Part shown: positions 1 through 5,460 of the stretch, piece after piece
How the letters are laid out: the number at the start of each line of letters is the position of its first letter
Position numbering within the stretch: the first letter of the stretch is position 1
DNA from: a virus
Taxonomy: Duplodnaviria; Heunggongvirae; Uroviricota; Caudoviricetes
Reading direction: 5' to 3' (one strand)
Length of the DNA stretch: 5,460 bases
Virus record (IMG/VR): IMGVR_UViG_2531839662_000010
Coordinates: 1-5,460 of that record
Notes under the pieces: model-generated
Seen by the model: only the letters and a program-made list of their open reading frames with translations
Databases searched by the model: none
What the model was told of the DNA's origin: nothing
Program-made: the position numbers and the translations under genes

Positions 1-600
1 TCTTTACCACTTTCTGTGTTGATTGGTTATGAAAAGAACGCTCGCACACACTCCGTGGAGCAGGTAGATCAGATTGTTGCCAGCATACAGGAGTACGGAT
101 GGACTAATCCGATCCTGATAGACGAGAACAACGTTGTAATTGCTGGTCATGGTCGAATTGCTGCGGCCACTCAGTTGGGGATGGATGACGTTCCCTGCAT
201 TGTTCTGGAAGGGCTAACGGAGAATCAGAAGAAGGCATATCGTCTGGCCGACAACCGTATTCCGCTGAATGCTGGTTGGGATGAAGAGTTGTTAAGCGCG
301 GAACTTGCAGATCTTGCGGCCGATGATTTTGCTCTGGACTCAATTGGTTTTACTCAGCGCGAACTGGATAACTTATTGAGTGCGGCGGTCTACGATGACA
401 CAGAGGGTATGGATATCCCATTTGAGAAGGATGAGGCCAAATCAGGCGTAAAAGTTCAGTACCTGTCATTTGGAGGTCATAAAATCCCGGCAACGGATGA
501 GGAAGCGGATCGTTTTGACTGCGCGGTGTCTCGTTATGTTGATGATAATGGCAGCTATATCGGATTTGTATCCGCATTGCTGGCTGGGGAGGTGTGCTGA
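1..600 (+). CDS. ParB/Srx-fold (ParB N-terminal domain) nuclease-like protein, 5'-partial; frame is open to window start, true start probably just upstream
   Basis: ORF 16..600 has no stop upstream in frame and no SD before GTG16/TTG19. Translation shows ParB-N hallmarks: NARTHS near the N-terminus, GHGR box (nt 145-156), then LADNRIPLNAGWDEELLSAELADL, a pattern typical of phage ParB-like nuclease proteins. Stop TGA 598-600. Confidence 0.75.
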   Translation, partial: SLPLSVLIGYEKNARTHSVEQVDQIVASIQEYGWTNPILIDENNVVIAGHGRIAAATQLGMDDVPCIVLEGLTENQKKAYRLADNRIPLNAGWDEELLSAELADLAADDFALDSIGFTQRELDNLLSAAVYDDTEGMDIPFEKDEAKSGVKVQYLSFGGHKIPATDEEADRFDCAVSRYVDDNGSYIGFVSALLAGEVC

Positions 601-1973
601 TGCTTCACCTGAATTACGACATAACGCACCTACGCGGCGCGGAATATAACCCGCGTTTTATCGGTGAGGATGATCTTGCGAGGCTGGCGGAAAGCGTCAG
701 GGAGCTGGGGCTTGTGAAGCCATTGATAGTGCGCGGCGATTTGCTGGTGGCGGGACACCAAAGGACGAAGGCGCTACGTAAGTTGGGAATAACGCGTGCT
801 GCGGTGTATGTGTTGCCCTGTGAAACGACGGTATACGACGAAGTACGGTTTAACCAACTGCATAACGGAACGGATTTTGATAGCGGAGATGAGCGTTGCA
901 GGGTGTCCGGTCTGGAAGATAAGCATGGTTTTGTTCAGGTATCGGCAAGCCAGATCTCAGGCAATATGCGCGCGAAAATGGCATATGTTCGAAAGAACAT
1001 AGCGGAACTGGTTATCAAGTATGGTCCGTGGGGTGGTTGTGTTGCTACTCAGTCTGGTGAGGTTATTCATTGTGCTCAGTATGCATTAGCAGCGAAGATG
1101 ACGCGCACACCGCTAACGGTGTTTGTGATCCCTGATGTTGAGAAGGAAAAATACCAAAGTTATCTGAATAAAACTTATGGTGTATTTGAGTATTCTCATC
1201 TGGAGAAAACAACATACATCCAGACGTATGCGCAGCTTATGCGGTTGCGTAATGGTGGCAGCCTGAAATCAAATCTGTATGAGTCGTTGATCCTCCCGAT
1301 CATTGCCAAGACGCCAAGAGGAATTGATTTTGGTTCGGGGCAGGGAGACTACGCGCGAATGCTCAGGGCAAAGGGATATAACCTGCATGATCTCGAGCTT
1401 TTCCGCCGTAAGGGCGCTGGAAACACTCTGGATAGGACCGCAACAAACCGGATGATTGATACGCTGGTGGATGACTTAAAAACGCGAGGGCGTTACGACT
1501 ACGTGATTTGCGATAGCGTTTTGAACTCGGTCGATAGTGTCGAGGCTGAATGGTCCGTTCTGACGGTTCTGAAAGGCCTGTGTAAAGCTGGTGGGTCAAT
1601 ATTCTTTTCTGGTCGTAGCCGTGGAGAGCTGGAAACAGTCCTGAAGCAAACACAGGCGGCGAGTTCCAAAAGCCGGCTTTATTTTATTGATCATAACGGT
1701 TTTACCGCGTTGTACCGGAAGGGGCACTGGTTTTACCAGAAGTTTCACTCTGATGAGGAAGTGAAGCAGTTGTGTCGTGTACATGGTTTCAGGATTAAGC
1801 GGTCAATATTCAACTGTAAGAGCTGGTATTTGCACGTCATTAACGATGATTCCCTTAGTTGGGCGAGTCTGGAGAAAGCTGTTCGTTTTGAGTTTGAGTT
1901 GCCGTTGCCTGGTGGTTCAACAATCGGACGATCTGATGATGTGCTGGCGGCTTTCCGGCCGTTGATTAAGTAG
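600..1973 (+). CDS. Fusion protein: N-terminal ParB/Srx-like domain + C-terminal Class I SAM-dependent methyltransferase-like domain
   Basis: ATG at 600 overlaps the upstream TGA (TGATG) with GGAGG at 588-592; the track's GTG 594 has no usable SD spacing. N-terminus YNPRF...VAGHQRTKALRKLG is ParB-like. C-terminal half has Rossmann MTase motif I IDFGSGQGD (nt 1323-1349), motif II YDYVICDSVLN (nt 1494-1526) and motif III-like LKGLCKAGGSIFF. No (D/N/S)PP(Y/F/W) motif seen. Confidence 0.7.
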   Translation: MLHLNYDITHLRGAEYNPRFIGEDDLARLAESVRELGLVKPLIVRGDLLVAGHQRTKALRKLGITRAAVYVLPCETTVYDEVRFNQLHNGTDFDSGDERCRVSGLEDKHGFVQVSASQISGNMRAKMAYVRKNIAELVIKYGPWGGCVATQSGEVIHCAQYALAAKMTRTPLTVFVIPDVEKEKYQSYLNKTYGVFEYSHLEKTTYIQTYAQLMRLRNGGSLKSNLYESLILPIIAKTPRGIDFGSGQGDYARMLRAKGYNLHDLELFRRKGAGNTLDRTATNRMIDTLVDDLKTRGRYDYVICDSVLNSVDSVEAEWSVLTVLKGLCKAGGSIFFSGRSRGELETVLKQTQAASSKSRLYFIDHNGFTALYRKGHWFYQKFHSDEEVKQLCRVHGFRIKRSIFNCKSWYLHVINDDSLSWASLEKAVRFEFELPLPGGSTIGRSDDVLAAFRPLIK

Positions 1974-1989
1974 TCTGTAGGAGGCGCTG

Positions 1990-2328
1990 GTGGCTGACAG
2001 AATTGAGATAAAGATGGATTTTTCTTCTCAGGATATTCAACGACAACTCCAGCGCCTTGAAGAACGCGAATTGCCGTTCGCAATGGCGCTTGCGGCAACC
2101 AGAACGGCAAAGGCTTCTCAGGCTGCGATTAAGAATGAAATTAATCGGGTATTTGACAGGCCCACGCCGTGGATTCAGAACTCTACTTACGTTTTGGCCG
2201 CAAAGAAGAGTGATCCTACAGCCATTGTGTATGCTCGTGAATGGGGAGGAACGCCAGCCCCTGTAACGTTGACTCCGCAAATCGAAGGTGGCCAACGACA
2301 GTACAAACGCTCAGAAGGTGCGTTGTAA
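1990..2328 (+). CDS. Hypothetical protein (112 aa), third gene of the ParB operon; weak, unverified resemblance to small phage morphogenesis proteins
   Basis: GTG start at 1990 preceded by AGGAGG (1979-1984, 5-nt spacer), 16 nt after the upstream stop. Helical Ala/Gln/Arg-rich N-terminus. Stop TAA 2326-2328 sits inside the left arm of a perfect hairpin. Confidence 0.5.
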   Translation: MADRIEIKMDFSSQDIQRQLQRLEERELPFAMALAATRTAKASQAAIKNEINRVFDRPTPWIQNSTYVLAAKKSDPTAIVYAREWGGTPAPVTLTPQIEGGQRQYKRSEGAL

Positions 2329-2380
2329 AACCCACTGAATTCAATGTTTTCCCTTTGTTTTCAGTGGGTTTTGTTATTGG
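2327..2380. terminator. Putative bidirectional intrinsic terminator: perfect 13-bp inverted repeat with 20-nt loop
   Basis: AAAACCCACTGAA (2327-2339) and its exact reverse complement TTCAGTGGGTTTT (2360-2372), followed by T-rich GTTATT. On the opposite strand the stem is also followed by a U-run. Lies between convergent genes. Confidence 0.45.
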
Positions 2381-2411
2381 TGGGGGTTACTGATTACCCT
2401 ATAAAACCCAC

Positions 2412-3403
2412 TTATGTGGATGAAATGTGGATGCCTCCTTTTAACGGATTAAGTGAAATTGCATCCTGGAGGAAATCAGGAGCGAGGTGTGCATAGGTCA
2501 TAGTTTGCTGGATCGTGGCGTGCCCCATAATTCGCTGGAGCGTAAGTATATTTCCTCCATTAATCATAAAGTGAGCTGCAAAGGTATGGCGTAGAACATG
2601 TACTGCCTGCCCTTTTGGTAGATCAGGCTTAACACTGCGAAGCACCTTGCGATATTCCTCATAATTGACGTCAAACAGAAGGCCGGATTTCTTTGTTTTG
2701 ATCTCGCTAACAACTTCATCAGAGACAGGAATAATTCGAACTTTTCCGTTTTTAGTTTTGTTAAACGTCACGCGGTTATTGATGATGTGTTCCGCGCGCA
2801 GATTTTTCGCTTCTCCCCATCTCGCACCAGTACTGAGACAAAGTAGCGTAATCCGCCGGGCATCACCGCTTACTGCATCCAGTAATTTGGCAATTTCTTC
2901 CGTGGTGAGATACGTCATTTCGGGTGATTTTCGTTTCAAAGAGGGGAGGGCGCGGAGCGGATTTTCTCCGTGAAATTCCCCGGCATTTGCCAGGAGTGTA
3001 AACATTCCTCCGAGATCCGACTCATCACGCCGAACAGTAGACTCTTTTACTCCCAAAGATTAAACGGGAGCTTCGATTAAGCGGCCATGAAACGAGCATT
3101 AATCTGGCTAACCCTTGGATCATTCATTTCTTTGATGATTTTTTTCAACCTGGTTAGAACGCCGTTAGCATATGGCTTATTGCGTCCACCCAATTCCCAC
3201 CATAACGGAAGCAGATCTGAGAGATGACGTTGCTCTGTTGGCTTTTCAAGCCATTCCTTATCGTGCATGTGGCTGAGAACATAACGCTCAAAGGCCACTG
3301 CATCTGCCTTTTTCTTAAAAATCCGCTGAATCCGACGTCCACTTCGGCCACGCGGTCTAACATCCACTTTATACCGTCCACCATCGAGTGCTTTAATTGC
3401 CAT
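2412..3403 (-). pseudogene. int: P2-type tyrosine integrase, apparently inactivated (N- and C-terminal halves in different frames, separated by stop codons)
   Basis: N-terminal part (ORF 3077..3436; probable start ATG 3401-3403 with GGAGGG SD, giving MAIKALDGGRYKVD) resembles the P2 Int N-terminus. C-terminal part (2412..3056, starting at a TTG) carries the catalytic motifs ARWGEA, HVLRHTFA and the tyrosine in MTYAHL. Frame 1 stops at 3077-3079 and frame 2 has a stop at 3060-3062; no single indel joins them. Confidence 0.6.
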
Positions 3404-3469
3404 TGGCAAGCCCTCCGGTGAAACGAGGAAAGACATTTCCAGTTTGTAAAACGTAAGAATAATAAAGGG

Positions 3470-3772
3470 TTAACCAATTTTCCTTTCGGATGGGGGTAAA
3501 TCCGTTGGTTCTTGCCCATAGTGTGCGAGAGCCGGAGCTATCTGCCCGGATTCAGGCGCAATTTTTCCAGTCATAAACCACAACGCATATTTCTCAAATC
3601 TGGGGTTGTTTAGTATTTGCTCAATTACTTCAGCATTAGGGATAGTTTTACCGCTTTCATATCTCCACAGAGCATCACGGTTTAAACCAAGCATTTTTGC
3701 TGTATCCGGGAGGCTAGTAAGTCTCTCGCTTTCACGCATGATTTTTATGCGCTCTCCAATAGTCATACGCAT
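3470..3772 (-). CDS. C: P2 C-type immunity repressor
   Basis: About 100 aa from ATG 3770-3772 with GGAG SD (the track starts at a TTG 15 nt further upstream). Contains WFMTGKIAPESGQIAPALAHYGQ, which closely matches the C-terminal half of phage P2 repressor C as recalled. Sits upstream of int on the same strand and divergent from cox. Confidence 0.8.
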   Translation of the reverse strand: MRMTIGERIKIMRESERLTSLPDTAKMLGLNRDALWRYESGKTIPNAEVIEQILNNPRFEKYALWFMTGKIAPESGQIAPALAHYGQEPTDLPPSERKIG

Positions 3773-3867
3773 GTTGCAATTCTCCAACGTCTGTATTAAT
3801 GTTTATACAAATGAGTTTGATTTGGGGCATCCGTCGCAAGAAATACCCCAAACAGGGAGATTATCAC
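3773..3867. promoter_or_regulatory. Divergent promoter/operator region of the immunity switch (Pc leftward, Pe rightward)
   Basis: 95-bp AT-rich spacer between divergent C and cox starts. Contains a 7-bp inverted repeat TTTGGGG (3821-3827) / CCCCAAA (3846-3852) and TATTAAT / TTTATAC -10-like hexamers. Exact -35/-10 boxes could not be assigned by eye. Confidence 0.45.
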
Positions 3868-4194
3868 ATGAATGAAGAACTATTGAGGGCATTGTTTAAG
3901 ATCCCAGACCCCATCACCGTTGATGAGTTTTCCCGCCGCACAGGTAAGACCGAATCAGCCGTAAGAAAGTTGGTAGAGCGTCGACTCATCCCTCTAACTA
4001 CTGAGCGCGAGGTTTTAGGCGAGGAAGGGAGTTCGCGCCGTCTTCTCATCCTTTGGAATGAGTGGCTCGAAATGGTCTATGACGCAACGAGACAGCTTCC
4101 TCCTGAGCGTAAAGATTGGCGCAACCACTGGCTTAAGAAAGCCAAGAAGCTGGCGGAAGATTTGGGATTAGGCTTTCTTAATTTTGCTGCATGA
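3868..4194 (+). CDS. cox: Cox-like excisionase/transcriptional regulator (108 aa)
   Basis: ATG 3868 with GGAG SD (3855-3858). First gene rightward of the repressor, divergent from it. GKTESAVRKLVERRLIPL resembles the P2 Cox DNA-binding region as recalled. The track's upstream start at 3799 would overlap the operator region and was not used. Confidence 0.6.
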   Translation: MNEELLRALFKIPDPITVDEFSRRTGKTESAVRKLVERRLIPLTTEREVLGEEGSSRRLLILWNEWLEMVYDATRQLPPERKDWRNHWLKKAKKLAEDLGLGFLNFAA

Positions 4195-4212
4195 GATGCA
4201 GGGAGTTTTGAT

Positions 4213-4554
4213 ATGAAACAGCAACGTAATTCACGCTTTCGTAATGGTGCTGAACGCCACGCTAACCGTTTCGCTACCAGTGCATCACGCAGCAACATCC
4301 GCTACAGCCTGAGCGAAACACACGCAACGCCGGATGGCTACCCAGTAAAACAAATCGGCGAGCACGCCTGGTTGATTGAGAAAGCTGGAATCGTGGTCCA
4401 CAAATGCCCACACAATCCGTTTACCGGAAACCGCATTTTTGCACTAAGCAGCGGCGACAATCAGTTCGGACAGGATTTCACATTGTACGAAGCACTTCGT
4501 ACAGTTGATCGTCTGCTTCGCGGACAAAGTTTTATTAAACAGGCTGATTTATAA
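4213..4554 (+). CDS. Hypothetical early-operon protein (113 aa) with strongly basic N-terminus
   Basis: ATG 4213 with GGGAG SD (4200-4204), 18 nt after the cox stop. N-terminal 30 residues are Arg/Asn/Ser-rich. Function not recognised. Confidence 0.5.
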   Translation: MKQQRNSRFRNGAERHANRFATSASRSNIRYSLSETHATPDGYPVKQIGEHAWLIEKAGIVVHKCPHNPFTGNRIFALSSGDNQFGQDFTLYEALRTVDRLLRGQSFIKQADL

Positions 4555-4564
4555 CAGGTGCTTT

Positions 4565-4843
4565 ATGACCAAAGAGCATGCACAAGGTGTATTTATCCGT
4601 TTTATTGATTTTCGCGGTGAACTGTTATTACGCGCATCGGCTATTGATGCTGTAGTTCCGGCAGAAAAAGATGTGGCCACTTACCTTTATCTGAACGGCA
4701 CGCGATTGTTTGTGGAACTTCCGTACCAGACCGTACGCGAAATCATTAACGAAGCTGAAAAGGCACGTCAGGTTAATGGCGATGAACCATATATCGAAAT
4801 TATCTGCATGGATTCAGAAGCTGAAATTCAGAAAGCAGATTAA
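4565..4843 (+). CDS. Hypothetical early-operon protein (92 aa)
   Basis: ATG 4565 is 10 nt after the previous stop, with AGGTG upstream. The track's longer version from 4505 would overlap the preceding gene by 50 nt, so the downstream start is preferred. Acidic C-terminus. Confidence 0.5.
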   Translation: MTKEHAQGVFIRFIDFRGELLLRASAIDAVVPAEKDVATYLYLNGTRLFVELPYQTVREIINEAEKARQVNGDEPYIEIICMDSEAEIQKAD

Positions 4844-4854
4844 AGGGCGTTGCG

Positions 4855-5097
4855 ATGGGCAAAGAATATAAAACTCTCATTAACAAAGCACTTGAGCGTT
4901 TTTATTTTCGCTTAAGTGCATCAGGCGTTCATGCTGAACGTGCAGCCCGTGACTCATTGACCAGGGCAATCCGGAGTCTGTATGACGTGGCTTTTTACGC
5001 TGATGATCTGGATGCACTTAACGAACTTTCCGAGCTGATCTGTGCCGCAGAATGCGGGGAACATATTGAACCGTATAAGCTGGGGAATATCGCATGA
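4855..5097 (+). CDS. Hypothetical early-operon protein (80 aa)
   Basis: ATG 4855 is 11 nt after the previous stop, with AAGGG upstream. Predicted helical. Function not recognised. Confidence 0.45.
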   Translation: MGKEYKTLINKALERFYFRLSASGVHAERAARDSLTRAIRSLYDVAFYADDLDALNELSELICAAECGEHIEPYKLGNIA

Positions 5098-5207
5098 GTA
5101 TATTTATCTCATGGCTTGTTCTGATTATTTCGGTGGCCTGTGCCATTGGGATTATGCGAATTATTAATTCAGTAAAAAAGATTGAACGCTTTTTTACTGG
5201 TGAATAA
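5094..5207 (+). CDS. Small hydrophobic peptide (37 aa) with one predicted transmembrane helix; not in the supplied ORF track
   Basis: ATG 5094 overlaps the upstream TGA as ATGA. Translation MSIFISWLVLIISVACAIGIMRIINSVKKIERFFTGE: a roughly 19-residue hydrophobic core followed by a basic tail. Stop TAA 5205-5207. Confidence 0.35.
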   Translation: MSIFISWLVLIISVACAIGIMRIINSVKKIERFFTGE

Positions 5208-5300
5208 CGATACAAATAAAACATCAAATTAAATAAGAAAACGTGAAAACCATCCGTATTAACGGAGGTATTCGCACACGCAAATAACGGAGATACAAAA

Positions 5301-5460
5301 ATGCACGCAAAAGAAGAAGGTATCATCAGAGCACTGAAAGAAATTTCAAAGATGGAAAGCGAAGTAGCGAAAAAAGCCGTGGCCAATGCTCACATGGACG
5401 TCGCAATCCACACAATGATAGCCGCAAAAGTCACGGCAGAAGCTGCCAAAATCATCGAAG
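5301..5460 (+). CDS. Hypothetical protein, 3'-partial (runs off window end), Ala/Lys-rich helical N-terminus
   Basis: ATG 5301 with GGAGA SD (5289-5293, 7-nt spacer) after a 93-bp AT-rich spacer. Open to the window end: MHAKEEGIIRALKEISKMESEVAKKAVANAHMDVAIHTMIAAKVTAEAAKIIE. Confidence 0.5.
   Translation, partial: MHAKEEGIIRALKEISKMESEVAKKAVANAHMDVAIHTMIAAKVTAEAAKIIE

Follow-up and report, generated by a model that had tools for sequence, protein, structure and literature searches.

Two single-base insertions split the integrase gene of a P2-like prophage in one Escherichia coli draft assembly

The DNA analysed here, referred to as the window, comprises 5,460 nucleotides and is the entire contig AFAB02000066.1 (5460 bp) of GCA_000194535.2, the 2011-12 draft genome of E. 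coli 2.3916. Within it, the integrase gene of a P2-like prophage is split over two reading frames by two extra bases, T3060 and T3077. Either the consensus is wrong at these bases or the knockout is very young; in neither case does the split testify to a domesticated prophage. We consider the chances to be even that both bases are consensus errors, in which case the cell would make a normal 329-aa integrase and nothing would be immobilised; deciding between such an error and a real young null allele appears close to tossing a coin. The junction that joins the prophage to a phage-plasmid is real and common to several assemblies; the split is private to one. Judged by its sequence, the gene belongs to a widespread E. 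coli prophage and encodes an ordinary P2-family integrase of the functional type. Since the lesion is private and recent whether it is an error or a mutation, the prophage is not to be regarded as decayed or domesticated.

Structure of the split integrase gene

The gene lies on the minus strand and occupies two frames (Table 1). Its N-terminal ORF ends with ...INARFMAA, the last base being 3080, and is followed by TAA at 3079-3077. Codons 1-108, whose sequence is that of the intact allele, comprise the arm-binding N-terminus together with the first part (one half) of the core-binding domain; an in-frame ATG at 3436, upstream of the annotated start at 3403, adds 11 codons to the ORF. Another TAA in this frame stands at 3049-3047. 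The C-terminal ORF (3056-2412) has TTG 3056 as its mechanical start, for which no ribosome-binding site was visible, and GGAGG lies just 1 nt upstream of its first ATG. Between the two ORFs there is a gap of 20 nt (3057-3076). The first-pass annotation had thus placed the split, its three stops (3077-3079, 3060-3062 and 3047-3049) and a spacing of about 20 nt correctly. It had located the break between the arm-binding and the catalytic part of the protein, whereas we found it inside the core-binding domain, at codons 109-115 (Pfam Int_N, 58-156).

In the alignment to intact alleles, exactly two indels were private to the window, T3060 and T3077, and the coding-strand change was TTATC to TTAATC at both. 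The second insertion falls between codons 114 and 115. Because these are two separate +1 insertions that shift the C-terminal part by +2, the gene cannot be repaired by a single indel, as the earlier reading of the sequence had also stated. The inserted bases are the same base in the same 5-mer (GATAA to GATTAA), and they affect both copies of a 9-10-nt direct repeat, the intact form of which is GATAAACGG / GATAAGCGG. No single continuous integrase frame exists in the sequence as deposited; deletion of bases 3060 and 3077 yields one ORF of 329 codons. The repaired protein equals, residue for residue, the intact integrase of a sister contig (L020, see below), and its length is that of the 990-nt CDS (WP_000974887.1) found in lysogens. 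All other differences from intact alleles within the gene are synonymous and lie at 2490, which is common to L020, and at 2678.

Table 1. Features of the window around the att junction, the split integrase gene and the lysogeny module.
Feature	Position	Strand	Remarks
Phage-plasmid minor-tail gene, 5' part	1990..2328	+	PHROG 1924, E 1.4e-97; 239 aa when intact
Hybrid att core, phage-plasmid left / P2-like prophage right	2305..2325		AAACGCTCAGAAGG|TGCGTTG
TAAAACCCACT, three copies between att core and integrase stop	2326..2412	2326, 2402 direct; 2362-2372 inverted	conserved in E. coli lysogens
Integrase codons 115-329 and stop (2414-2412)	2412..3059	-	second half of the core-binding domain plus entire catalytic domain
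Direct repeat GAT[T]AA(A/G)CGG, two copies 17 nt apart	3058..3084	+	one extra T per copy
Insertion 2, extra plus-strand T at 3060	3060..3062	-	TAA in the C-terminal frame directly upstream of Ser115
Stretch between the insertions, residues 109-114 (YRSSRL) of the intact protein	3061..3076	-	in the frame of neither ORF
Premature TAA, insertion 1	3077..3079	-	extra plus-strand T at 3077; coding-strand A; TAT Tyr109 to TAA
Integrase codons 1-108 (MAIK...FMAA)	3080..3403	-	start 3403 as in the 990-nt CDS annotated in complete genomes
HTH repressor, 100 aa, intact, position of the P2 C repressor	3470..3772	-	same-length HTH gene WP_001242988.1 at the matching position of lysogens
Cox-family gene, 108 aa, intact	3868..4194	+	RefSeq 'Cox family DNA-binding protein'; divergent from int

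The repaired integrase sequence served as the query in all tests of similarity to P2 Int. It contains the Pfam domains Int_N (58-156, 82 bits) and Phage_integrase (164-307, 63 bits), and its residues 47-327 align end to end with PDB 5C6K (E 1.6e-96); for 5DOR, E was 5.4e-65. Both structures are labelled only 'Integrase' in their entries and are presumably P2 Int. In the alignment, 5C6K has the same catalytic residues, namely the Arg of ARWGE, HVLRH and the Tyr of MTYAH. With the integrases of Escherichia phage P2_AC1, Yersinia phage L-413C and Peduovirus P22H1 the protein shares 52-54% identity over 98-100% of the length. Together with the surrounding P2-type module, these matches confirm the earlier assignment to the P2 integrase family. 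As a separate observation, integrase residues 107-319 match chain 14 of PDB 9i5v (401 residues, E 2.3e-9), which is labelled 'Ribosome-associated translation inhibitor RaiA', a label that looks odd for a tyrosine-recombinase-like sequence.

The layout of the lysogeny module is that of P2, with the att junction, int, a C-type repressor and a divergent cox gene in this order. The repressor, which the first-pass annotation had described as retained, is indeed an intact ORF, and the comparison revealed no private change in its region; it is likened to WP_001242988.1 by length and position. The Cox protein reached 24.9 bits for Pfam Phage_Cox, which is under the cut-off of 27.5, and the cox gene is followed by DUF4761 and DUF4754 genes. 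Six visible neighbours of the integrase gene are intact, namely the repressor gene, cox and four further ORFs downstream. The three TAAAACCCACT copies between the att core and the integrase stop are candidates for arm-type or accessory Int-binding sites in the att arm, or for the int terminator. Copies of this motif also form an imperfect hairpin of 18 nt at 2327-2372.

Compared with P2, the gene order att-int-C-cox is the same and the integrase is 52% identical to Int of P2-like phages. In contrast to P2 Int, the protein is about 48% divergent, its att specificity is for the raiA terminator, whereas P2 is specific for locI, and the gene in the window does not encode one polypeptide. Much closer are the P2-like prophages located between raiA and pheL that encode WP_000974887.1 (329 aa), with 98.5-99.4% DNA identity and the same neighbours as in the window, namely the HTH repressor, Cox, DUF4761 and DUF4754. 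The window differs from them by the additional T3060 and T3077 and by the location of the prophage in a phage-plasmid gene instead of the raiA-pheL attB.

Distribution of the insertions and other private changes

The region 2305-3600 was matched at 98.5-99.4% in 125 of 5426 complete E. coli genomes, in which the gene is a single 990-nt CDS. A search with 101 nt in the same 5426 genomes found neither insertion in any of the 126 complete-genome records that have the gene, and the best identity over 3020-3120 (98.0%) is the value expected when both bases are absent. No exact match was obtained for a 30-mer containing both insertions in viral or genome contig collections, nor for 26-27-mers over each insertion singly in genome or metagenome contig collections. 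An allele with a single insertion was thus found neither in the collections nor in the complete genomes searched. In the annotation deposited with the draft, the split gene is represented by two separate proteins, EII49117.1 of 214 aa and EII49110.1 of 73 aa. Both products, when looked up exactly, led to the source contig only, and such look-ups brought up no independent assembly of the strain. Extending these look-ups to products of 214, 197, 119, 108 and 73 aa revealed no other carrier of the single or double insertion. Two contigs (L008, L009) that seemed to share the 108-aa product merely end at that codon, which points to a selection effect of the exact-product look-up and not to a common stop.

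The closest relative of the window is the sister contig L020 (SRR10586189), which covers window positions 1-4282 and differs by two SNPs (2678, 4091) and by the absence of both insertions. Its gene is intact and encodes the 329-aa integrase. A lesion inherited by related strains, as would be typical of a cryptic prophage, was therefore not found: the lesion is private to AFAB02000066.1, and the sister is intact.

The two SNPs are A>G substitutions private to the assembly, of which the one at 2678 is synonymous in int and the one at 4091 changes CAG to CGG in cox, a nonsynonymous exchange with the inferred consequence Q75R in Cox. The resulting Cox variant occurs in no other contig of an index of 153 billion genes. 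In the comparison of 2305-4290, all four private changes of the contig fall between 2678 and 4091; the 2.3-kb plasmid part has none. The substitutions are unlikely to be consensus errors and thus argue for real private divergence of the copy in the window. Apart from T3060 and T3077, the 5.4-kb contig has no private indel, including the region 2305-5460. All 21 homopolymer runs of at least 5 nt keep the length seen in relatives, among them a T7 located about 60 nt from the lesion, and 13 other GATAA/TTATC sites are unchanged, including the one at 658 with a similar CG-T(n)-ATC context. Further signs of poor consensus in the contig were not found.

Knockouts of the same integrase have occurred elsewhere in E. 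coli. A TGG to TGA change (Trp to stop) is present in at least eight places, L014 and seven similar ones, L015 has CGA to TGA at codon 110 (R110 to stop), the complete genome CP027380.1 has a frameshift from A7 to A8, and in L012 and L013 the gene has suffered 5' deletions and remnants lie next to pheL. L011, L012, L013, L014 and L015 are E. coli prophages at the pheL site in which the same integrase was inactivated independently. Gene and outcome resemble those in the window, with an N-terminal stump and a catalytic ORF of 197 aa. In contrast to the double insertion in the window, which was seen once, each of these knockouts is due to one ordinary lesion, and at least one of them is common to several assemblies.

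Consensus error, young null allele or domesticated prophage

If the two insertions are consensus errors, the extra bases would exist only in the consensus of the 2011-12 draft, and the prophage integrase in the cell would be unbroken. Several findings favour this explanation, which we regard as the best one at an even chance. Insertions of the same base in both copies of a repeat are very unlikely as independent mutations, and a double insertion in a direct repeat fits better to one cause that depends on context or reads. Both insertions are absent from all other copies examined; L020, which has the same junction and is two SNPs apart, encodes the intact protein, and the protein of the intact allele is recovered when the gene is repaired. 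Moreover, the contig is short (5460 bp), belongs to a draft of 2011-12, and its left end lies at no repeat, given that no internal repeat was found at that position of the phage-plasmid. Against a consensus error stand the clean remainder of the contig, with no other private indel and unchanged lengths of the 21 homopolymer runs, the two private substitutions (2678, 4091) in the same module, and the fact that other E. coli have lost this integrase independently through lesions that are evidently real.

Particular sources of error can be narrowed down. A motif-specific base-calling error that converts GATAA to GATTAA as a general rule was discarded, because the 13 other GATAA/TTATC sites, including the one at 658, are unchanged; this also argues against a simple motif-specific error as the cause of the split. 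A generic poor consensus of the homopolymer or pyrosequencing type is not supported, since the 21 runs match those of relatives and no other private indel exists.

Alternatively, the insertions are real, and E. coli 2.3916 has a strain-private integrase null allele of very recent origin, which would be a young pseudogene and not a domesticated element. We give this explanation somewhat less than an even chance. Translation would then stop after residue 108 in the core-binding domain, and the catalytic part would be out of frame and without a proper start. From what is generally known about tyrosine integrases, Int-dependent excision and integration would be lost unless another copy complements the defect, and the prophage would be locked in the phage-plasmid. 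Such an allele would agree with the absence of any other private indel and of altered homopolymer runs, with the private substitutions in the same int-cox module including the unique Cox variant, with the repeated inactivation of this integrase in other E. coli (L014, L015, CP027380.1, L012, L013), and with the retention of the split in the deposited annotation. However, it is improbable that the same base was inserted twice independently, at a distance of 17 nt and in both copies of the repeat, and no convincing mechanism by a single event was found. The only template candidate was a quasi-palindrome in which AGATTAA (3057-3063) and TTAATCT (3099-3105) form an inverted match of 7 nt; this is within chance and would still require two events, so that a templated origin was rejected. 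Furthermore, an intermediate with one insertion was not encountered in the collections searched, the closest relative L020 is intact, and outside the lesion the amino-acid sequence of the integrase is unchanged.

Real insertions would have a more far-reaching consequence if they lock the P2-like prophage in the minor-tail gene of the 48-kb phage-plasmid; two temperate phages would then be permanently combined on one extrachromosomal replicon. We consider such a composite rather improbable. If it existed, the plasmid would maintain and partition a prophage that can no longer leave, the phage-plasmid would be devoid of a tail gene, and the private int changes and the inferred Q75R exchange in Cox would be the first steps of such a fusion.

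The first-pass annotation had interpreted the split as the sign of an immobilised, domesticated prophage, which kept its repressor and was retained as a cryptic element for the benefit of the host. A long-standing state of this kind is very unlikely according to our results, which do not support the interpretation. It would be in line with an intact repressor next to an int gene that is split in the sequence as given, with the private amino-acid change in Cox, the other excision protein, and with the remnants of the same prophage family at pheL in L012 and L013. However, the lesion is confined to one assembly, and its absence from the sister that is two SNPs apart over 4.3 kb already contradicts such a state; the integrase has not drifted by any amino-acid substitution, and all six prophage ORFs next to it in the window are intact. 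The insertion of the prophage at a secondary site in the phage-plasmid points to recent activity of the integrase (see below). Only 3.1 kb of the prophage are in view before the window ends at 5460; neither further decay nor a gene of benefit to the host was seen within this part.

That the split is functional, either by recoding that joins the frames or by arm-binding and catalytic polypeptides that cooperate or regulate, can practically be dismissed: its only supporting point is that both fragments keep their sequence intact, whereas the ribosome would have to shift twice in succession, past in-frame TAA stops, to join the frames, the core-binding domain is interrupted by the break, the arrangement occurs in no other genome searched, and the C-terminal ORF has the poorly equipped TTG start described above, with GGAGG only 1 nt ahead of the first ATG.

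Frameshifted prophage integrases are routine in draft genomes, and the finding matters little. In the present case, a copy of a very common allele is unchanged except for a private double insertion that may be a consensus error. The practical lesson is that a split of this kind without read support is not usable as evidence of prophage domestication. The only biology of mild interest is the integration of a P2-like prophage into a phage-plasmid, an arrangement present in several independent isolates, and if anything here deserves separate attention, it is this junction.

Integration of the prophage into a phage-plasmid

The first 2322 nt of the window do not represent E. coli chromosome. Their identity is 99.3-99.4% both to Yersinia phage vB_YpM_41 and to Escherichia phage vB_EcoM-613R2, and they are equally similar to some non-mobilizable plasmids of 48-50 kb from E. 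coli, E. fergusonii and E. albertii, one of which is the 48.5-kb plasmid of ATCC 25922. By these similarities, the element carrying positions 1-2322 is classified as a phage-plasmid. The prophage cuts its minor-tail gene at about codon 111, and the phage-plasmid is probably tail-defective. The fusion creates an ORF of 112 aa whose stop codon lies in prophage DNA. This ORF retains ..SEGAL at its end, since the prophage side supplies the same three amino acids ahead of the stop.

A look-up of the 112-aa junction ORF returned 21 contigs, and four Logan assemblies (L020, L025, L026 and L028) read through the junction. A chimeric misassembly at this position was rejected, given the identical junction in independent Logan assemblies. 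L025, L026 and L028 are 100% identical to window positions 1-2343 or 1-2345, and they end 15-17 nt past the junction ORF. This suggests that the respective isolates carry a second P2-like att-int copy that causes a branch in the assembly graph. Among the 5426 complete E. coli genomes, none has the junction between phage-plasmid and prophage.

The prophage of the lysogens lies directly beside the raiA/RaiZ terminator, upstream of pheL. The empty site of K-12 reads ...AAAAAACGCGCCCGAAGGCGCGTTGG..., the target in the phage-plasmid is ACAAACGCTCAGAAGGGGCGCTAAGG, and the junction in the window is AAACGCTCAGAAGG|TGCGTTGTAAAA. A short common core, GAAGG(N)GCG, is present at the crossover, and the secondary site resembles the attB in the raiA terminator. 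The insertion of the prophage at this look-alike secondary site was apparently mediated by the integrase. Integration at secondary sites is known for P2, and here, too, the site is only partly like the primary core (shared GAAGG-GCG). In contrast to the secondary sites of P2, the target is the minor-tail gene of a phage-plasmid and not a chromosomal locus. The same junction at a core-like site in several isolates implies, as far as can be judged from the sequences, past recombination activity of the intact allele, and its position at a secondary site points to an allele that was active in this lineage not long ago.

The phage-plasmid part of the window additionally contains two adjacent genes with a ParB-N domain on the plus strand (16-600 and 594-1973). 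In the second one, ParB-N is fused to the methyltransferase domain PF13489, and the gene belongs to PHROG 5475, whose function is unknown. Such a ParB/Srx-methyltransferase pair is typical of this phage-plasmid.
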